From a virus (Duplodnaviria; Heunggongvirae; Uroviricota; Caudoviricetes), in the IMG/VR virus record IMGVR_UViG_2531839235_000014: a DNA stretch of 10,051 nucleotides, one strand, 5' to 3'. Every line of letters begins with the position of its first letter. Position 1 is the first letter of the stretch. Shown in pieces: positions 1-8,398 of this stretch. Both the position numbers and the translations under genes were made by a program. The notes below the pieces were generated by a model. It did no database searches. It was not told where the DNA came from and saw only the letters and a program-made list of their open reading frames with translations.

Positions 1-102
1 TGGCTCGCTTTATATCTCTGGTACCCATCAAAAATACTGGAATACTTCGGATTCAGATACCTGGTATCAGGTGGGGTATACCAGCAGCTGGGTTGGCATC
101 AG

Positions 103-642
103 TTATTCACTCTCATTTTCGTGAAAAATACTGAAAGCGCGAAACAACATCCACTCCACCAGTGGGTTAACATAAGCCTCTTCCAGTGGAACTGGCGTAT
201 CATCGTCCTGCGTCAGAACATACACTGCCTCCGGTATCCGGCTTACCACTGCATCAATACTTATCTCTTTGTCAGGAGTAGGAAACAGCCAGAATACGCG
301 CGGGGACAGGTCGTTGCTGATAAAACATTCAGGAATACCCTTCATTGTGGGCCACTCAGGATACTGCGCATCCAGCACCTCCCGGGATAATGGTCTGACT
401 GCACTACCGTCACTGAGGCATATCACGTCAAGAAGTTGTATTACACCATCGGGCAAAACCTGACGGGCGCCAGGAACACAACTTATTGTTTCCAGGCTTG
501 CGCCAGCATCCGGTCTCGCCAGAATCACTGCCCTCACAGCATCATTGTAATAATCGCACAATTCCTGCAGGGGCCAGCGAACCATCATCGGGTCAACCAG
601 TTGTGTATTCACACGTCCGATGATTTCTGTAATCGTCGTCAT
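103..642 (-). CDS. Hypothetical phage morphogenesis protein (179 aa), likely a head-completion or connector protein
   Basis: Complete ORF with ATG at 642 and TAA stop at 103-105. Its ATG overlaps the TGA of the upstream ORF by one base (TGATG), suggesting translational coupling. Same strand and operon as the head genes. No recognisable motif; function inferred from position only. Confidence 0.55.
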
Positions 643-1205
643 CAGAAAAACCTCTGCCTGCGTACAGGGTTGCGGTATGAAGAGTACGGGCTTGTCGCCA
701 GTGTATGACGATATGCCCGACGGATCCCCTCAGAAAACTGCACAGAAAAATACTGTGCGCGTAACGGATCTGACCATGAAACACCAGTCTGCATGAACAA
801 CCGCTCAAGTGCCCCCGCAGCCACTTCTTCAGGCCATGTGAGGAGTTCATCCGGTATCTGGCTGCGTCCGGCTTTCGGAGCGACGGCATAAAGCACGCTC
901 ACCTCACCGGGAGAACAGGCAAATCGCAGGGAGCGTCCGGAGCTGATATCCACATCCCGACCGACAAAAAGCTCATGATTATCGTCAGAGATACGGATGA
1001 TATGAACGCACTCCTCATCATCTTTGTCATACGGAAGCACGATTTCTTTTCCTGCTACTGGTACAACAGTAACCTCCCGACGGCACACCAACGACTGGCG
1101 GCTGAATGCCACGGCAGCCATTGACAGAGCATCCGTCATCATAATGTTCAGTGGACCGCTGATATGACGACGGACATACGGTAAAAAATCACTCAGTTCC
1201 GCCAT
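642..1205 (-). CDS. Hypothetical phage morphogenesis protein (about 188 aa)
   Basis: The six-frame ORF 642..1313 is trimmed to the internal ATG at 1205 (MAELSDF...), which has a GGAG about 9 nt upstream. The longer start at 1313 would overlap the preceding gene by about 125 nt. Stop overlaps the next start (TGATG). Function unknown. Confidence 0.5.
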   Translation of the reverse strand: MAELSDFLPYVRRHISGPLNIMMTDALSMAAVAFSRQSLVCRREVTVVPVAGKEIVLPYDKDDEECVHIIRISDDNHELFVGRDVDISSGRSLRFACSPGEVSVLYAVAPKAGRSQIPDELLTWPEEVAAGALERLFMQTGVSWSDPLRAQYFSVQFSEGIRRAYRHTLATSPYSSYRNPVRRQRFF

Positions 1206-1650
1206 GCTGTTCAGTCTCCGCAACACGACGGCGAAATGCCTCACGCACCCGGATACGGAATGCCTCAGCCGTTTCTTTCGGGTCTTTGTGAATATCCAGC
1301 TCTTCTGCCTCACACAGCGTCGCCAGCCGTGCTGAGGTGAGCTTACTTAAATCCACCTCCTGCCCGTTAACAGAAACAACAAAACTGTTCTCCGCTTCTG
1401 CCAGCGCAGCAAGCACTCTTTCCTGCGCCTGCTGTGCCTGCCGCAACTGCTCATTCTGTTGTTGCTTTTTCAGAACATCATCAAGCTCTTCATGACGAAC
1501 CCAGACATCCGGAAACCCCAGCAGTTGCCAGGCCATCGCGCTGTCAACATGCACCGGCTCAAGACGTGGGAACAGCGTGCGACTTCCGGTAATGGTGTCC
1601 TTTTTCACGGGTTTTGGGCCGATATAGACAACGGCAATTTTCTCACTCAT
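1189..1650 (-). CDS. Hypothetical phage morphogenesis protein (about 153 aa) with a Q-rich predicted helical segment
   Basis: The six-frame ORF 1189..1677 is trimmed to the ATG at 1650 (MSEKIAVV...), preceded by GGGGAA. The ATG at 1677 lies inside the loop of the upstream terminator hairpin, so it is an unlikely start. Function unknown. Confidence 0.5.
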   Translation of the reverse strand: MSEKIAVVYIGPKPVKKDTITGSRTLFPRLEPVHVDSAMAWQLLGFPDVWVRHEELDDVLKKQQQNEQLRQAQQAQERVLAALAEAENSFVVSVNGQEVDLSKLTSARLATLCEAEELDIHKDPKETAEAFRIRVREAFRRRVAETEQHGGTE

Positions 1651-1664
1651 ATAATTCCCCGGAT

Positions 1665-1686
1665 AAAAAGCCCGCATGACGCGGGC
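1665..1686 (-). terminator. Intrinsic (rho-independent) terminator, minus-strand orientation
   Basis: On the minus strand: GCCCGC-gucau-GCGGGC stem-loop (1670-1686) followed by UUUUUAUCC (1665-1669). It lies between the 129 aa ORF stop (1700) and the next start (1650). Confidence 0.65.
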
Positions 1687-1699
1687 CGGAAGGTTTTAA

Positions 1700-2089
1700 T
1701 CAGTATCCCACCACGGTATAACGCAGCAGAACATTCAGGGTGCCGGTTGCAGCGGCAGTCTTAATGGTGACAGTAACCAGCTCCCCGTCACGCTGTGTGG
1801 TGTACGGCTCCACTGGCACATATCTGGCAAATTTTGCAGAAACAGCTTCGCTGTTATCGATGAGAGCATGCTCACCGGACTTAATGCTGACGGTTGCAGT
1901 ACCCAGACCACCCGTTGAAACCAGTTGGAGTGAGTTGATACGGATGCCCACTGGCAGTGAGAGAAGATGAATAACACTGTCCGCTTCCGCAGCATTCACC
2001 GTAAATACGCCTTCTGCCACCGACTCATTACCGTGCGTACCCGTATAGACCCGTTCACTCAGTGACGGGGCAAGGATAGTCTTTGCCAT
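1700..2089 (-). CDS. Small hypothetical virion protein (129 aa), possibly a capsid-associated or decoration protein
   Basis: Complete ORF with ATG at 2089 and AGGAG about 9 nt upstream. Located immediately downstream of the major capsid gene and bracketed by two intrinsic terminators. Composition is Thr/Val/Gly-rich, suggesting a beta-rich protein. The function is a guess from context. Confidence 0.55.
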   Translation of the reverse strand: MAKTILAPSLSERVYTGTHGNESVAEGVFTVNAAEADSVIHLLSLPVGIRINSLQLVSTGGLGTATVSIKSGEHALIDNSEAVSAKFARYVPVEPYTTQRDGELVTVTIKTAAATGTLNVLLRYTVVGY

Positions 2090-2104
2090 AATTAATGACT
2101 CCTG

Positions 2105-2127
2105 AAAAAGCCGGGCGAAAACCCGGC
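2105..2127 (-). terminator. Intrinsic terminator, minus-strand orientation, directly after the major capsid gene
   Basis: On the minus strand: GCCGGG-uuuucg-CCCGGC (2110-2127) followed by UUUUU (2105-2109), then the AGGAG ribosome-binding site of the next gene. Confidence 0.7.
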
Positions 2128-2144
2128 ATAGGGAAAGGAAAAAA

Positions 2145-3359
2145 TCAGAGCTTCACTGCTGTATCAACGGCAATCACGCCGTGATCCTGCATCTTGCCGC
2201 TCTTCTCGGGGAAACGGATTTTTTTCAGACCGTTGATCCAGCTGATTGCTATCTCAGTACGGTTATCCATATCCGTTTTCTTCTCAACCATGTTGAAGTG
2301 ACCGCCCGCCTTCTGACCGTAAGCATTTGCCAGCGCCTGAGCCCCCAGTAACATGGCGCGGTCAATATTGGTTGCAGCAGCGACCTCTTTCGTGGTTGCC
2401 GTCAGGTTATTCTCTGATACCAGAACCTTTGACCCCTGATAGAAACGGATCGGCATACCCGCATACTTACGAACCAGGATATTGCGCCACATCGCACATT
2501 CACCTTTGAACAGCGGATGATTAAAACCTTTTGCACGGTTCACGGCACGAACCATCATCTGGTTCCAGTCCTTACCGGACGTCGAGGTGTACCAGTCATT
2601 CCACTGACGCGGCGTGACGTACAGGACGTAATATGGATCTTCTCCGTGAAGTTCATCACCGGACAGACGAACCGGCTGTAACGGATGCGCCATTTCGTCA
2701 ATGAACAGGGAGAGATTGTCCACCAGGCCAATAGAAAAAATATCTGCCGCTTCAATCTGCTCAAAGCTTGTCGCATCACCGCCAAAAAAGTGACGGTCAT
2801 GTGTCGGAGGCAGTACATCGTTGATCATGATTTTTTTGAATTCAGGGTGCTCCGCTGTCGGCAGAATAGTGTCGTCAGCAACAAAATCACCACGAGCTCC
2901 AGCAAGATGCACTATCGCACACTGGTCCTGCAGGTCATTAAAGTACGTCCCCAGAAGCGTTCTGGCTGAGGATGCCAGGTTAAACTTCGTGCGCTGCTGA
3001 CTCATACGTCCGCCTGCATCCACCAGGTGACGTCCCTGATTGATTTTCAGGGAGAAGTCAGCATGGCTGAGATCCTCACCACGACCTTCAACACGCTCAT
3101 CTCCCATCGTCGGACGTTTTGAGAGTTTGTGCATGATGCTGAAGGTCACTTCATCACCGGCCTGTTTGTTAAGGTCTGTGATACGGACAACCGGCGCACC
3201 CGCGCTGGTCTGCTTCGTGCTTTTCTTGTCCGGCGAAACCGCTTTTGGCGCTTCCTGCTGTTCAGTGAGGATATTTACCATCGAGCGGTTGCGGTTGGCA
3301 GCGGTAAAAAGCGCCACCTGATACAGCTTATTCGCCTGGGCTGATGTTACAGTCGTCAT
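2145..3359 (-). CDS. Major capsid (coat) protein, 404 aa
   Basis: Complete ORF with ATG at 3359 and GGAGAA ribosome-binding site. It is the large ORF that follows the scaffolding-like gene in the order terS-terL-portal-scaffold-capsid, and is itself followed by a strong terminator, as expected for a highly expressed coat gene. Assigned by synteny and size; no search was run. Confidence 0.7.
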   Translation of the reverse strand: MTTVTSAQANKLYQVALFTAANRNRSMVNILTEQQEAPKAVSPDKKSTKQTSAGAPVVRITDLNKQAGDEVTFSIMHKLSKRPTMGDERVEGRGEDLSHADFSLKINQGRHLVDAGGRMSQQRTKFNLASSARTLLGTYFNDLQDQCAIVHLAGARGDFVADDTILPTAEHPEFKKIMINDVLPPTHDRHFFGGDATSFEQIEAADIFSIGLVDNLSLFIDEMAHPLQPVRLSGDELHGEDPYYVLYVTPRQWNDWYTSTSGKDWNQMMVRAVNRAKGFNHPLFKGECAMWRNILVRKYAGMPIRFYQGSKVLVSENNLTATTKEVAAATNIDRAMLLGAQALANAYGQKAGGHFNMVEKKTDMDNRTEIAISWINGLKKIRFPEKSGKMQDHGVIAVDTAVKL

Positions 3360-3382
3360 TACTTCAGTTCTCCTTCAGTAAG

Positions 3383-4390
3383 TTACCCGAGCTTCTCCAG
3401 AAGCGCGTCTATTTCAGCATTCGTCATACCGCGCATAATCGCCTCTGCCTCTGAATGAGAAGCGCCAAGTAACCGTTCAAAATTATCACCGGTTCCGACG
3501 GAAGCCGTGGTGCCTAAATCTGACGGGGAAGCAGGTACTGCCTGCTCCTGTTCAGCGGTCTTCACTTTCTCTTCCGCCGTTTTCCGGATATCCGTTTTGT
3601 CTGCCTTGTTGTCAGCAGACGACTCACTGACTTCACCGAAAGCAACCTGCGTACGACGGGCCACTTCAGCGAAACGTTCAGTGAGCGTTTTGTCTTTCCA
3701 TGCGGGGTCATTCTGGAGCTTCCCGTCGATGGATACAGCAACCGAGAAGCGATCTGGATCGGACTCCTGCCACGTTTTCAGCACCGGCACGGCATTCATC
3801 GCATCAAGAACCGGTGATAAATCCTCACCACCATTACCTTCTGCCTGCTGTGCTGATTGCTGAACACGGGACTGGAGATAGTTATTTTTACGGATGAGCG
3901 AAGCCACCGCGTCACCAATTTCCGGATACATCTCCCTGATACGGGCAATCTGCTCATCAGAAATTTTTTCGTTTTCCGGTAACGGTGTGGGCTTCATACC
4001 GGCCTGGTGGATCTGAGACGTCAGCAGTTCCACCCTGCGTTTTTCTTCAGCTATCTGCCCACGAAGAAGTGCGGCTTCCTGTTCGGCCCGTTGCTTACCG
4101 GAACGTTCAGCCTCAAGGACTTCATAGGGAATGACGTGTTTACCGTCGCGGGTGAGCACCCCCTTCGCTTCCGGCTCCTTCACGTCCTGCGTCTGCTCCA
4201 CACTGGCATCCGGCGTCGGTGCCACATTGTTATCGCCCGTCTGAGTCTGTGCTTCCTCATCCGCATGTTTTTCCGTGGTATCTTCCGTCACGACGTCCTG
4301 TGCGTGACTGTCAATATCCACATCCCCAAGTCCTTCCAGCATTTTTTCCAGTTGTTCCGGGGTTTCTTCACCCGTAAATTCAAAATCCAT
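3383..4390 (-). CDS. Putative scaffolding protein, 335 aa, highly acidic
   Basis: Complete ORF with ATG at 4390 and GGAG 7 nt upstream. Very acidic, Glu/Asp/Gln/Ala-rich low-complexity sequence with predicted long helices, located between the portal and major capsid genes, which is the canonical scaffold position. A prohead protease is not excluded, but no protease motif is evident. Confidence 0.5.
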   Translation of the reverse strand: MDFEFTGEETPEQLEKMLEGLGDVDIDSHAQDVVTEDTTEKHADEEAQTQTGDNNVAPTPDASVEQTQDVKEPEAKGVLTRDGKHVIPYEVLEAERSGKQRAEQEAALLRGQIAEEKRRVELLTSQIHQAGMKPTPLPENEKISDEQIARIREMYPEIGDAVASLIRKNNYLQSRVQQSAQQAEGNGGEDLSPVLDAMNAVPVLKTWQESDPDRFSVAVSIDGKLQNDPAWKDKTLTERFAEVARRTQVAFGEVSESSADNKADKTDIRKTAEEKVKTAEQEQAVPASPSDLGTTASVGTGDNFERLLGASHSEAEAIMRGMTNAEIDALLEKLG

Positions 4391-4500
4391 AAATAACTCC
4401 GCATGGTCTGTTTATCGGACAGATCCGAATGGTTGAGTAAATAAGGCTTATCGCTGCCCCCGCGAATAAGCGCACCGCTCCCGGAACGCTTACCTCCGGA

Positions 4501-4527
4501 AACAAAAAACCCCGTACGATGACGGGG
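4501..4527 (-). terminator. Intrinsic terminator, minus-strand orientation, between the portal and scaffold genes
   Basis: On the minus strand: CCCCGU-caucgu-ACGGGG (4510-4527) followed by UUUUUUGUUU (4501-4509). It lies 20 nt downstream of the portal stop. Confidence 0.7.
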
Positions 4528-4547
4528 TTCAGTTGAAGCCAGAGTTT

Positions 4548-6692
4548 TCAGAGCGACATTTCATTCATCCGCTGTTGTAACGTATACAGCATCTGTTGCT
4601 GAAGAACGTCCTGCTCCTGTTCCATATTCTGTACGCCGGTAATGATTTCTGCCGTATGTGCCTGGTTAAGCGCATCCACATAACGCTGCCCCTGTGTCAG
4701 GGCGACTTCCCGCTGTGCACTGGCATTATCCCGTTGTGCAGCTGCATGTGCCCTGGCGGCGTCAGCTTCCAGTTTTGCCACTCTGCCAGCCATCTCGCGC
4801 ATCTGGAGTTCTGCCTGTTGTTGCTGAAGTGCCTGTTGTTGTGCCGCTACTTCCTGTTCTTCCGGCGTCATTTCATCCGGTGATTTTGGCGTCCCCAGCG
4901 CAGCACGAATACGCTCAACAAACTCCTGTTTCTGCGGCACATCCAGAAGATTAACCCACAGGTCGAGCACAACAGCCTGCACCTGAGGCGGCAGCCCCTG
5001 AATAACCTCTGACATTCTCTGTGCAAGCTGTGCCTTAAACGCCGGTGTCTGCTGAACAGGCGCCAGCGCAATATGTGTATTTAACCTTGAAATATCATTG
5101 GTCAGTTCACCATTATCACCTTCAGCATTGAGGACAATGGTCTGGCGACGCTGGCGATCATCGCGATTAATCACCACTGCATGATTACGGCGTTTTTTCA
5201 GGTCATCGAGAAGATAAGCCAGCAACAGTCTTCCCACCTGCTGGCAGGCAAACTGGTAGTTATCGTTGATTTCCGCAAGGGTTGTGGCCCCCTGCTCCAC
5301 CAGGTTACTGATAGCCACGCCTGACGTCGCACCTGAATCCTGCCCGAGAAATGCGGAATACACTCCCATGGTATCCTGGATAAGTTTTTCCGATTCCTGC
5401 ATGACCTGAAACTGCTGGCTGGCAACCTGAAAATCCTGCTCAACCCGAAAAACATCTGCGACACTTTTCTGATTTTTTCGGACCGGATTCAGTTTAATAA
5501 TGCCATCCGGACGTTCGAGCTGCTCCATCAGGTCGTTGTCTGACAACTGGGTGGCATCCTCGTCCATAATCACACGTTTGGCCTGAAGCAACCAGGTCAG
5601 CTTGATACGACGAAAATTCACCTCATCCTGTGCCGGAATGGCGCGGGAAATTAGCCCGTATGGCTCCCCGGTTTTATCCTTTCGGTATCCCCAGAAAGGA
5701 ACCAGCGGAAACATCCCCTGCGGAGCACTACAGGGGCGATCCACAATAAAGTGCGGCCCGACAAACCAGGCTTCACGAATACGGCTTACCCGCCCGACTT
5801 TCACCTGAACCCGCCCGGATGCCACAGCTACCGCCTGCATCAGATTATTTTTATCAAAGGCCACCACCCGTCCATTACTGAGTTCAATCACCGGAAGACG
5901 CTCGAATGTACGGTAATAAACCACCTGAAGCAGCACACGACGGCGTTCACGCTGAAGCCATTCGTTCTGCTGTCGATCCCATGACTGATACTCTTCCCAT
6001 GCACTCATCAACGGACTGGGCTGGCCTTCAGTAACCGTGGTATCGACAAAACCACGCCAGTCATCAATGGCATAATCGATAACCTGAGCCATTCCCGGGA
6101 ATGTAGCTTTTGCCTCATCGGTATCCATCCAGCGGCGACGCATCAGCCAGCGGCAGTCACTTAAATCAGCCTCCCGGCTCAGCCAGTCCCAGAAAACCTC
6201 ATTCCGGCTGACAGTAGACACCTTAAATTCAGGCCCGAACGGATCACTGTTTCGTCTGACCTCCACCCAACTGAGGCCCGCCTTGATTTGTTCCGCATAG
6301 GCATCGGAGCGGGCCTTATTCATGTTGCCAAGACGGCACGCATCAGCAAACTCCGCATTAATGGCCTCTGCCAGTTTCTCTGTTTCATCGTTCGGATCGT
6401 CTGACATCACTATCAGGTCCGTTCTTGTTTTTGCCTCCATTCCCAGTACACCATCTACCGTGGGGGCAATGAGGTTATGGATGGTCATGGGCTGACCGCG
6501 ATCTTTCAGTACCTGGATAACTTCCGGTGCCAGCTGGTCGCCATCATAATACGCACAGGCCTTGTTTGCGGCATCACGCCAGAGAGGCTGACTGTCAATA
6601 TCAGAACAGAGAGACAGTAACTGACGCTGAGAAAAACGCGGCGTGGATCCATGATCGTTTTTCATCGCTGTGGTGTTAATTTCATTTTTCAT
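4548..6692 (-). CDS. Portal protein, 714 aa, with a C-terminal Q/A-rich helical extension
   Basis: Complete ORF immediately downstream of the large terminase; its ATG overlaps the terminase TGA (TGATG). Size of about 700 aa and a C-terminal ~100 aa low-complexity helical tail (QQQALQQQQAELQ...) are reminiscent of P22-type portals with a C-terminal barrel. Assigned by synteny and architecture. A second in-frame ATG lies 9 codons downstream. Confidence 0.7.
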   Translation of the reverse strand: MKNEINTTAMKNDHGSTPRFSQRQLLSLCSDIDSQPLWRDAANKACAYYDGDQLAPEVIQVLKDRGQPMTIHNLIAPTVDGVLGMEAKTRTDLIVMSDDPNDETEKLAEAINAEFADACRLGNMNKARSDAYAEQIKAGLSWVEVRRNSDPFGPEFKVSTVSRNEVFWDWLSREADLSDCRWLMRRRWMDTDEAKATFPGMAQVIDYAIDDWRGFVDTTVTEGQPSPLMSAWEEYQSWDRQQNEWLQRERRRVLLQVVYYRTFERLPVIELSNGRVVAFDKNNLMQAVAVASGRVQVKVGRVSRIREAWFVGPHFIVDRPCSAPQGMFPLVPFWGYRKDKTGEPYGLISRAIPAQDEVNFRRIKLTWLLQAKRVIMDEDATQLSDNDLMEQLERPDGIIKLNPVRKNQKSVADVFRVEQDFQVASQQFQVMQESEKLIQDTMGVYSAFLGQDSGATSGVAISNLVEQGATTLAEINDNYQFACQQVGRLLLAYLLDDLKKRRNHAVVINRDDRQRRQTIVLNAEGDNGELTNDISRLNTHIALAPVQQTPAFKAQLAQRMSEVIQGLPPQVQAVVLDLWVNLLDVPQKQEFVERIRAALGTPKSPDEMTPEEQEVAAQQQALQQQQAELQMREMAGRVAKLEADAARAHAAAQRDNASAQREVALTQGQRYVDALNQAHTAEIITGVQNMEQEQDVLQQQMLYTLQQRMNEMSL

Positions 6693-8398
6693 CAGTGTGC
6701 CATCCAGTGTGTGGTTCTGCGTTTATCCGTTTTCTGTTTTACCCTCACCGGCATTCTGGCGCGCATCTCCTGGGCAATCATGTAGCTCATGAGCTGATCA
6801 TCAAAGCAGCCTTCCTGTGCATTCATGGAGCCTTTCGCGTCATAAACGTAGGTGTTCATTTCCGATAATGTGCCTGACCAGCGGATCCCTGATATTCCAT
6901 TATTCAGAAGCGTTTTCATTCCTTCGGTCAGAACAGGTTTGCTCTGACGGGTTGTCAGCCAGCCAAGGCGGGGCGTATCGTCGTCATATGCCTGGTCAAG
7001 ATGCTGTTCGTTGTAGATATAACGTGTCGGATAGAGTTCCCGGAGTTTCAGGATAACTGCATGTCCGTGATTATTACGCTCCGGCCCCACAAACGCGTTG
7101 TTATACATACGACAGACCTGCGAAATGAGATGAGCAAAAAGTTCAGCATCGAGATGCCCGAACCAGTGAGCCACCTGCTCGCCATTACTGCGTTTGACAA
7201 CATCCAGCGATGAGCGGTCTCCGTGCTCCAGCCCTTCGGCAGTATCTGCCCCACAAACATACTCTTCATCCGGATCCGGCAGTTCCCATACCAGCAGATA
7301 ATTCATCAGCGTCCGCTGCAACTCGTTTTTATTTCCTTCACGCAGAGACTGAGCTTTAGTCTTCGCTCCTGTAACAGGTTCAATGTCATAAACAATCATC
7401 GGTGGCGAACAGAATGATTCTGCCTGCAACGTACTTTCGGCACTGAACACACGTCGTCCGGACGTCAGAAACGCCTCCTGTGGCGTTGAGGGAAACTCCT
7501 GCTTCATTTCCTCACGCTGTTCAGTTTCCTTATTGATGTACCACTGCTTCTGTTCATCAGTAAGCGTGATGTTCATTGCCTTCTCAACCGCAGAAAAATA
7601 CGTCATTTTTTCCCGTGACAGCTTCAGCCCGCTTTCCGGCACTCTGGCGCTGTATTTAGGATCCTGCCACCAGGCGTAAAAATGGAATTTATAATCCTGT
7701 GCCGTCAGCAATAAGCCTGATGCAGTGATCTCCTGTGCTCGGTTACTCATCTCGTAAAAATCACCACCCACGCCTTCAGCAGTGGACTCATCAAAAATAA
7801 TGCATTCATCAGAGACGGCATTAAGCGTACCGGTTCGCAGTTCTTTCGCCTTAGCCGGATATTTCGCGCAAATTTTGCCGTGCTCTGAGATATGCAGGCG
7901 CTGCACCGTACCTGAACGGAATGAGGTTGCCACCTGGATACTCGAGCCGTGACCAAACAGGATATAGCCACCGCTGGCACCGCTACGACGTTCAACGATG
8001 GTGAATGAGGCTCTCAGCCAGTCAGGGAGATGATCAAACGGTACAGCAATTTTTGTGCGGAAAATTTCACTGGCAGCCTGTTTATCCTGAGCGACGATCC
8101 CGCATTTGAGATGCGGAATGAATAATGCCTGGTCGAGAAGATAAATATCAATGGCTGTGGAAAATCCCAGCTGGCGCGCTTTCAGGATAATATTTTTATT
8201 GTGCATGCTCCGGAACAACTGGCGCTGCGCCGGTCGCATTCTGAAGGTGACCAGTTCACCTTTTTCGTTCTGTATTTTGTAGAGATGATTGAGCCGCCAC
8301 CAGGGATTGCTCAGTTTAGTCATGATGAACAGACGTTGTTCAGCCTCGGTCATTTCTGACGGCTCATCACATCGCGGTTCATTCTTCCGGAATGTCAT
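6692..8398 (-). CDS. terL: Terminase large subunit, 568 aa
   Basis: N-terminal deviant Walker A-like motif KARQLGFST, a Walker B-like IIFDEST, and a C-terminal acidic nuclease-like region (VCGADTAEG...). GGGGAG ribosome-binding site 6 nt upstream of the ATG at 8398. Sits between the small terminase and portal genes. Confidence 0.88.
   Translation of the reverse strand: MTFRKNEPRCDEPSEMTEAEQRLFIMTKLSNPWWRLNHLYKIQNEKGELVTFRMRPAQRQLFRSMHNKNIILKARQLGFSTAIDIYLLDQALFIPHLKCGIVAQDKQAASEIFRTKIAVPFDHLPDWLRASFTIVERRSGASGGYILFGHGSSIQVATSFRSGTVQRLHISEHGKICAKYPAKAKELRTGTLNAVSDECIIFDESTAEGVGGDFYEMSNRAQEITASGLLLTAQDYKFHFYAWWQDPKYSARVPESGLKLSREKMTYFSAVEKAMNITLTDEQKQWYINKETEQREEMKQEFPSTPQEAFLTSGRRVFSAESTLQAESFCSPPMIVYDIEPVTGAKTKAQSLREGNKNELQRTLMNYLLVWELPDPDEEYVCGADTAEGLEHGDRSSLDVVKRSNGEQVAHWFGHLDAELFAHLISQVCRMYNNAFVGPERNNHGHAVILKLRELYPTRYIYNEQHLDQAYDDDTPRLGWLTTRQSKPVLTEGMKTLLNNGISGIRWSGTLSEMNTYVYDAKGSMNAQEGCFDDQLMSYMIAQEMRARMPVRVKQKTDKRRTTHWMAH

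Follow-up and report, generated by a model that had tools for sequence, protein, structure and literature searches.

What are terminator-like hairpins doing between the head genes of a phage late operon? The question is raised by a 10,051-nucleotide (nt) stretch of a viral genome (Caudoviricetes; IMG/VR record IMGVR_UViG_2531839235_000014), here called the window, in which all late genes of the head module are located on the minus strand. Three such hairpins, designated T1, T2 and T3, follow the portal gene, the major capsid (coat) gene, and a small gene for a protein of 129 amino acids (aa), identified below as the capsid cement gene. An earlier note, made from the letters alone, had placed the hairpins at 4501-4527, 2105-2127 and 1665-1686, and our scan agrees with these positions within a few bases. 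They are of the canonical intrinsic-terminator type and oriented with the genes, as the note had described them, and they are a new instance of a late-operon feature that is already known and annotated, and that is old and conserved. Their anatomy is as follows:

4500-4530, minus strand: T1, stem at 4530-4507 (GAACCCCG/CGGGGTTT), followed by TTTGTTT, a U-rich tail at 4506-4500; 17 nt past the portal stop codon
2105-2127, minus strand: T2, stem at 2127-2110 (GCCGGG/CCCGGC), followed by TTTTT at 2109-2105; 17 nt past the coat stop codon
1664-1687, minus strand: T3, stem at 1687-1669 (GGCCCGCG/CGCGGGCT), followed by TTTT at 1668-1665; 12 nt past the cement stop codon

An intrinsic terminator was defined as a G+C-rich stem of ~5-14 base pairs (bp) with a loop of 3-8 nt, and a U-tract located 0-2 nt from the stem. 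The stems of T1-T3 contain 7-9 pairs, of which 5-6 are G-C, and enclose loops of 3-6 nt. In T1, UUU within the stem is followed by UUUGUUU, T2 carries UUUUU, and T3 has one U in the stem and then UUUU. Since the tracts of T2 and T3 are short, the efficiency of these two terminators is likely moderate. Each lies on the coding strand, at a distance of 12-17 nt from the preceding stop codon (that of the portal, coat, or cement gene). Folding, which the earlier note had proposed as a check, gave stem-loop free energies of -13.0, -12.7 and -13.2 kcal/mol for T1, T2 and T3, respectively (thus -12.7 to -13.2 kcal/mol overall), and the intergenic contexts of T1 and T2 reached z-scores of -4.0 and -3.2 compared to shuffled sequences.

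A consensus terminator scan of the window ranked T1-T3 first, all on the minus strand. When strict criteria were applied (at least 7 pairs, at least 5 G-C pairs, and at least 5 T in 8), exactly these three sites remained, against 0.40 ± 0.64 in dinucleotide shuffles, and only 2 of 300 shuffles reached three. A lenient scan yielded 14 sites versus 10.0 ± 2.7 in shuffles, which by itself is not significant. The head module has only three gaps of appreciable size (157, 55, and 49 nt; together 2.6% of the window), and each of them holds one of the hairpins. No sigma-70-like promoter was found within or beside these gaps when the window was scanned. The Shine-Dalgarno (SD) sequence of the cement gene, at 2103-2099, comes right after the U-run of T2. 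Minimum free energy folds had pointed to an anti-SD/SD clamp enclosing T2 and T3, which would couple cement translation to coat translation, but this was rejected because the energies of the flank duplexes were no better than with shuffled 5' flanks (significant variants 0 of 32 and 0 of 34). The 5' flanks are simply pyrimidine-rich and form no clamp. In all clades, the stretches between stop codon and hairpin (2128-2144 and 1688-1699 in the window) are strongly pyrimidine-rich, for example TTTTTTCCTTTCCCTAT and TCCATCCCCTAATCCCC; their composition is kept and their sequence is not.

To follow these junctions outside the window, relatives were gathered in four sets: annotated phages retrieved by tblastn searches with the coat protein as query, 80 IMG/VR loci with a coat identity of 73-100%, 80 loci from the F116-like clade of Pseudomonas, whose coat proteins are ~33% identical to that of the window, and five yet more distant phages. 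A broad coat alignment (A2) was without a conserved stretch and unusable for finding loci, whereas the narrower alignments A3 and A5 worked. The enterobacterial loci that reach far enough and the Vibrio phages have the gene order portal, scaffold-like gene, coat gene, ~130-aa gene, and next gene, and the F116-like Pseudomonas relatives share this layout. Phages of the Bcep22, LASTA and Itty13 types are arranged differently upstream of the coat gene.

Among the enterobacterial relatives, 35 of 38 distinct variants have a post-coat hairpin with a free energy of -8.9 kcal/mol or better, and a hairpin follows the 129 aa gene in 39 of 39. The post-coat stems are wholly different between clades (GCCGGG/CCCGGC, AAGCAGGC/GCCTGCTT, and AATAAGCAGG/CCTGCTTATT), and those after the small gene include GGCCCGCG, GCCCGCC, AAACCCGCC, and AGCCCAC. 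In the Pseudomonas-type clade, 45 of 59 variants have a hairpin after the coat gene and 58 of 59 after the small gene. Atu_ph08, QkW1, LASTA, Itty13 and KPP25 each carry one after the small gene; after the coat gene none was found in LASTA and Itty13, where the gaps are only 12 and 27 nt. Phages of Ralstonia, Agrobacterium, Klebsiella, and Pseudomonas with coat identities of 25-33% also carry hairpins at these junctions. T3 is nearly universal, and T2 is frequent but missing from some relatives, which fits coat and cement forming one high-copy unit. The position of the junction is conserved while the stem sequence turns over, and this comparison indicates that T1-T3 are not chance structures but selected ones. 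Three relatives (L087, L089 and L091) have a gap after the cement gene that is enlarged to 185-206 nt and contains a strong G+C-rich structure (-22 to -31 kcal/mol; GCCGTTGGGGTCGTAACGGCGTGAGCCGTCGGAGTGCCCCGAGGT is one case).

Comparable punctuation has been annotated in other phages. The HK97 RefSeq record (NC_002167) lists putative terminators at the end of the portal gene (3309-3335), after coat gene gp5 (5192-5213), and on both sides of the major tail gene (6692-6719 and 7443-7462). In P22 (NC_002371), a stem-loop at 6102-6119, right after coat gene 5, is annotated with the remark that HK97 and lambda have stem-loops at a similar location. The annotated HK97 and P22 sites fold as G+C hairpins, most of them with U-rich tails, and so does the sequence after lambda E. 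T2, a hairpin directly 3' of the major capsid protein gene in a long late operon, belongs to the same kind of punctuation, and the 933W late operon contains more compact terminators on the late strand, after stx2B, before S, and after L0123. The view in the earlier note that terminators on both sides of the 129 aa gene are unusual does not hold, as the flanked major tail gene of HK97 illustrates. HK97 resembles the window in having G+C-rich hairpins after portal and coat in a lambdoid late operon, and in the bracketing of a high-copy structural gene, but it belongs to an unrelated head lineage (protease, cross-linking coat), and has neither a separate cement gene nor a structured leader after the portal terminator. 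P22 shares the order portal, scaffold, coat, and a hairpin with U-rich tail directly after the coat stop codon, but it has no cement gene and only 13 nt between portal and scaffold, without terminator or leader; because of this short gap P22 was discarded as a model for the leader discussed below. Terminators after major coat genes are also known from T7 (T-phi, after gene 10) and from filamentous phages (after gene VIII), and intercistronic stabilizing hairpins from the malEFG and puf operons. A hairpin 3' of the most abundant product raises its mRNA relative to that of distal genes, by partial termination and/or protection against exonucleases. In these T7, filamentous phage, malEFG and puf cases termination or decay was measured, and T7 uses its own polymerase; none of them is known to involve Q-type antitermination.

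Sequence comparison showed that positions 129-10051 of the window are 99.3-99.9% identical to Shiga toxin (Stx)-converting phages, e.g. PA28, 933W and VT2-Sakai/Sp5. In the 933W record, the homologous block is located downstream of stx2, the lysis genes, and bor, within the late region. The late genes of Stx phages are transcribed from PR' in an antitermination-dependent manner, and PR' is constitutively active in lysogens, where transcription is stopped by tR' (PMC7547250). Given the ~99% identity to 933W/Sp5 and this published PR'/Q control, transcription of the operon in the window would be terminator-resistant as well. The genes of the window are:

9241-9486, minus strand: Rz-like spanin (PHROG 6954)
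8379-9185, minus strand: small terminase (PHROG 370)
6692-8398, minus strand: large terminase (PHROG 2 and others)
4548-6692, minus strand: portal (PF16510, E = 8e-127)
3383-4390, minus strand: scaffold-like head-assembly gene, 335 aa, Sp5 ORF61 (PHROG 479)
2145-3359, minus strand: major capsid (coat) protein (PF13252, E = 1.5e-88; 8h89_A, E = 1e-38)
1700-2089, minus strand: capsid cement protein, 129 aa, phi24B gp67, Sp5 ORF63, 933W L0117 (PHROG 486, virion structural protein)
1189-1650, minus strand: 153 aa gene downstream of T3, Sp5 ORF64 (PHROG 482)
642-1205, minus strand: virion structural protein (PHROG 437)
103-642, minus strand: SU10-type adaptor (PF24175)

In Sp5, the scaffold-like ORF61 is needed for head formation and is not found in virions (PMC5155283). 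Homologues of all clades have the motif DGKHxIPYE in common, which, extended to DGKHxIPYE...R, is the single conserved motif of a mostly acidic protein. The mechanically called open reading frame (ORF) 1189-1677 would place its ATG (1677) inside the loop of T3. However, the true start is ATG 1650, because PHROG 482 matches only residues 10-162 of the longer ORF, and T3 is therefore truly intergenic. In the next gene, a GTG start at 1313 would add 36 codons beyond the PHROG 437 match, and the real start is at ~1205. A bor homologue inside the late operon (9594-9887, plus strand) is encoded on the opposite strand, and a weak terminator-like site follows directly behind it (9946-9960, plus strand). 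At the other end, window positions 1-128 match the chromosomal fimbrial usher gene sfmD with 98-99% identity, and this piece is joined directly (128/129) to the middle of the adaptor gene, which encodes 179 aa versus 217 aa in 933W L0120. This junction occurs in no complete E. coli genome or phage record of the collections searched. The prophage in the source genome appears to be truncated and without tail genes.

The earlier note also suggested that the bracketed 129 aa gene may be a later insertion. A profile of its product and syntenic partners matches capsid chain 8h89_J of Ralstonia phage GP4 (E = 1.2e-16), and the window coat protein matches chain A of the same entry, 8h89. The GP4 capsid is described as containing 540 coat and 540 cement proteins (PMC9698820). 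For phi24B, a 2026 cryo-electron microscopy preprint reports a T = 9 capsid whose asymmetric unit holds nine copies each of the coat protein (gp69) and the cementing protein (gp67). The cement trimers are anchored via His19, a residue that is present in the window protein (...YTGTH19GN). The literature gives 12 subunits for the portal. A cement homologue is found in the same place in every enterobacterial IMG/VR locus that runs past the coat gene, and in Vibrio phages (pairwise E = 3e-9 between the window gene and the syntenic Vibrio gene), and the similar-sized syntenic genes of Pseudomonas, Pseudoalteromonas and Burkholderia phages align only weakly with it. Its G+C content is 52.8%, versus 51.7-53.7% in its neighbours. 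A moron or later insertion was therefore rejected on synteny, homology, composition, and function, since the gene is not sporadic, does not deviate in G+C content, and has a structural rather than an accessory product. Judged by these matches, the 129 aa gene is a capsid cement gene, an old and equimolar partner of the coat gene, and would be bracketed because it is the last high-copy gene and not because it is foreign. The nine Sp5 genes without which no plaques form do not include the cement gene (PMC5155283). An IMG/VR contig that is otherwise identical (L012, 6271-6624) has a cement gene that matches residues 1-69 only and stops early, probably due to a frameshift or an assembly error.

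Taken together, we consider it probable that T1-T3 are terminator hairpins under selection, that they punctuate the head genes in a late operon of the 933W/Sp5 type, that they are read through with the help of Q, and that they act at the RNA level. The resulting layout would be terminase and portal, T1, the leader with scaffold and coat, T2, cement, T3, and then the low-copy connector and tail genes. During lytic growth, Q-modified RNA polymerase starting from PR' would pass all three sites, as the known biology of Stx phages leads one to expect. Once transcribed, the hairpins would remain in the polycistronic RNA, where T2 and T3 could block 3'-to-5' exonucleases following downstream cleavage, and these two may in addition halt part of the polymerases as weak residual terminators. 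As a consequence, the high-copy scaffold-coat-cement segment (hundreds of copies; 535 coat and 540 cement) would accumulate above the downstream genes, whose products are needed in 6-12 copies. T1 would end the low-copy terminase-portal segment and insulate a structured leader that probably controls scaffold translation. In the lysogen, T1-T3 would stop unmodified polymerase. Read-through of a late operon in lytic growth, stabilization of mRNA 3' ends and silencing in the lysogen were already put forward in the earlier note, and given the near-identity to Stx phages with Q antitermination they seem reasonable. This does not apply to its proposal that termination sets differential expression, with portal low and coat high: because T1 lies upstream of the high-copy genes, termination there cannot yield more coat than portal, and only post-transcriptional effects could give such a pattern.

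Several points weigh against this interpretation. The G+C-rich context of T3 folds no better than shuffled sequences (z = -0.9). Many hairpins of the high-G+C, Pseudomonas-type relatives are without a good U-tract, and therefore what is conserved may be a function in RNA stability or processing and not in termination, or in E. coli the other way round. Read-through and stabilization at T1-T3 are predictions from layout, copy numbers, and operon analogy, and differences in translation efficiency alone could set the stoichiometry. Finally, since the prophage appears truncated, the three sites may have lost their purpose in the source genome. A literature search retrieved no usable transcriptome data for induced Stx phages, and the Term-seq data for strain Sakai come from uninduced cells (GEO deposit, PMC7547250).

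The region behind T1 turned out to be more than a spacer. In every enterobacterial relative, the portal-side terminator is followed by the same non-coding block of ~115 nt, which leads up to the scaffold gene and contains the following elements:

4391-4506, minus strand: scaffold leader, conserved and structured, ~115 nt, with H2, a distal hairpin, an SD-proximal hairpin, and the SD sequence GGAG at 4400-4397
4456-4503, minus strand: H2, a long hairpin with interruptions, in which the base (UAAGC/GCUUA) is conserved and the apical stem varies with compensating changes
4444-4459, minus strand: small distal hairpin GGGC[AGCGAUAA]GCCU, near-invariant as GGGCAGCGATA(A/C)GCC
4406-4425, minus strand: SD-proximal hairpin GAUCUGU[CCGAUAA]ACAGAC, ending 5 nt before the scaffold SD sequence

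T1 forms the 5' edge of this leader, and relatives carry a terminator there with other stems, always followed by TTTTTGTTTG. In an alignment of 35 distinct sequences (A4), the leader blocks are near-invariant, even though the scaffold protein is only ~40% identical. In H2, 94-98% of the alignment cells are paired and six pairs have changed on both sides; CGCTCTTA is present in some clades only, inside the H2 stem. The GGGC of the distal hairpin doubles as the 3' strand of the outer H2 helix, so that the two pairings are mutually exclusive. The SD-proximal hairpin is paired in 95.6% of cells, with one A-U/G-C exchange, in 13 sequences. The exact pattern TTCGCNNGGGCAGCGATA was found once per contig in 98 IMG/VR loci, and in nearly all loci with enough sequence it is located 59-126 nt upstream of a scaffold homologue; five matches are chance occurrences in unrelated coding DNA.

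The gap between portal and T1 is an insertion hot-spot in relatives. Inserts of 0.6-2 kb after the portal gene, seen in several enterobacterial prophages, are located upstream of the leader. The leader still has a terminator of its own in these prophages, which at times forms a tandem with one of the insert: in several of the inserts that were inspected, a separate terminator closes the insert immediately before the preserved T1 and leader (insert loci: L005, 1223-3336; L006, 2714-3234; and L066, L080, L086 and L089 between portal and scaffold). Vibrio phage 1F273_PE002 has genes annotated as anti-Thoeris and endolysin in this gap, and phage D56 a small ORF.

Counterparts of the leader hairpins are present in more distant phages: GUGC[AGCGAUAA]GCAC and GCUAU[AGCGAAAA]AUAGC in Vibrio phage 1F273_PE002, GUCAU[AGCGAAAC]AUGAC in Vibrio phage D56, and GCCAC[GGCGAUAU]GUGGC or GUCAC[AGCGAUAA]GUGAU in the Pseudomonas type. 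A blind scan of 65 distinct Pseudomonas-type loci for stems of at least 4 bp around a CGAWA-containing loop gave 62 sense-strand matches at -1200 to -1001 nt from the coat start, which is just 5' of the scaffold-like gene, over a background of mostly 1-3 per 100-nt bin with four secondary peaks of 11-13 (three sense, one antisense). In 67 distinct leader regions of this type, the median distance from the end of the hairpin to the start codon is 9 nt, and the SD sequence abuts the stem. In an alignment of 21 curated variants (A6), the loop letters GCGA-A are invariant, four of the five stem pairs covary, and 93% of cells are paired. The covariation score of A6 was reached by 0 of 500 shuffles, with the variants preselected for at least 3 closing pairs, and because of this requirement only the location statistics of the leader hairpin are unbiased.

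A hairpin that adjoins the SD sequence and combines a conserved loop with a covarying stem has the geometry of a translational operator, which, as a prediction from sequence, we hold as a lead and not as a result. Known hairpin operators include boxB of lambda and P22, with loops GAAAA and GACAA, and the operator of the MS2 coat protein, with a conserved loop and a variable stem; moreover, the P22 scaffold gene is post-transcriptionally autoregulated. The leader resembles boxB and the MS2 operator in its covarying stems, its conserved loop cores of the GAUAA/GACAA type (GAUAA, GACAA and GAAAA all resemble boxB-type loops), and in the position of one hairpin against the scaffold ribosome binding site (RBS). 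It differs in that it has no boxA, is not behind an early promoter, and is conserved in more distant, non-enterobacterial relatives. A nut-type antitermination site was accordingly rejected, as the leader is deep in the late operon and downstream of T1, without boxA and not behind an early promoter. A sigma-54 promoter was discarded because the GG-N10-GC spacing is inconsistent among clades (by eye), and a sigma-28 promoter because GCCGATAA, which resembles a -10 element, is not accompanied by a TAAA -35 element. A cmscan search of Rfam at E <= 1 found nothing in the window, and in five relatives only a sub-threshold Leu_leader match on a terminator. No candidate RNA-binding repressor was identified for the leader. 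In relatives of the Bcep22, LASTA and Itty13 types, a gene for a CsrA-like regulator is located directly upstream of a pre-coat gap of ~100-190 nt, which holds a palindrome YCGATAATCGR (TTCGATAATCGAA, CCGATAATCGG and TTCGATAATCGGG; L010 4006-4389, L280 3570-3877 and L281 3596-3886). We do not claim a relation between this palindrome and the hairpins with CGAUAA loops.

The leader is apparently undescribed, and it probably controls scaffold translation. As a more specific and distinctly tentative proposal, for which the odds are somewhat unfavourable, it may be an undescribed cis-regulatory RNA of a wide podophage lineage, comprising Stx and other enterobacterial prophages as well as Vibrio and Pseudomonas F116-like phages. 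It would consist of one or two small covarying hairpins with a (N)GCGAWA(N)/CCGAYAA loop, one of them against the scaffold RBS, and couple the synthesis of scaffold to head assembly by serving as a translational operator, with T1 as its built-in 5' insulator.

How do other explanations of the hairpins compare? They could be pure insulators of the lysogen, which only stop unmodified polymerase reading through from moron, insertion sequence (IS) or host promoters and have no lytic role. Such a function would agree with the U-tract geometry of true terminators, with the tandem terminators before the leader in relatives that have genes inserted after portal, and with a PR' that is always active in lysogens and stopped at tR' (PMC7547250). 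Nevertheless, we regard it as unlikely, since hairpins occur at the same junctions in distant relatives with different gene contexts, many of them without a U-tract, and since their placement tracks protein copy number and not the likely entry points of foreign transcription.

Slightly less likely still is a division into separate transcription units, in which T1-T3 are efficient terminators and a promoter in the region of T1 and the scaffold leader, perhaps activator-dependent, drives scaffold and coat, and possibly cement, apart from PR'. The succession of a terminator and a highly conserved ~115-nt non-coding block would suit this arrangement, and this unit structure is also present in more distant relatives with other gene contexts. 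However, the window scan gave no sigma-70-like promoter, candidate -10 positions are not conserved across clades (A4, by eye), and the variable stems covary, which points to an RNA structure and not to a DNA operator. Besides, the essential genes past T3 would still require read-through.

It is very improbable that T1-T3 serve to yield stable, 3'-end-derived regulatory small RNAs (sRNAs) that bind Hfq. A terminator hairpin with a U-tail is indeed an Hfq-binding module, and Stx phages produce such RNAs elsewhere, e.g. StxS and AsxR (PMC7547250), but there is no Rfam match, and in uninduced Sakai cells none of the Sp5 Hfq-CRAC candidates (1,255,628; 1,266,899; 1,268,411; 1,268,494; 1,292,386; 1,301,433; 1,308,356; and 1,308,663) is near the head-gene junctions, estimated at ~1.279-1.282 Mb. 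That the hairpins are functionless chance inverted repeats, as the unenriched lenient scan and the weak context z-score of T3 might suggest, is negligibly probable and contradicted by the strict count, by the confinement of all three to the small intergenic fraction of the window, and by the comparative data, in which well over a hundred distinct relatives have a hairpin at the same position but with other stems.

The late operons of Stx phages thus carry the same punctuation as those of HK97, P22 and lambda, and the terminators themselves matter little beyond annotation. Their placement follows protein copy number, with the scaffold-coat-cement unit fenced off, and the post-cement terminator, near-universal down to ~25% coat identity, is a clean case of positional conservation with sequence turnover. 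Knowing these sites is useful for reading RNA-seq and Term-seq data of induced enterohaemorrhagic E. coli (EHEC), and for the engineering of constructs derived from Stx phages. The more valuable by-product is the scaffold leader, a concrete and mutable RNA target for studying how a double-stranded DNA phage matches scaffold supply to capsid assembly. If the proposed role is true, the leader would be a physical basis for the kind of assembly-coupled scaffold autoregulation that is known genetically in P22.

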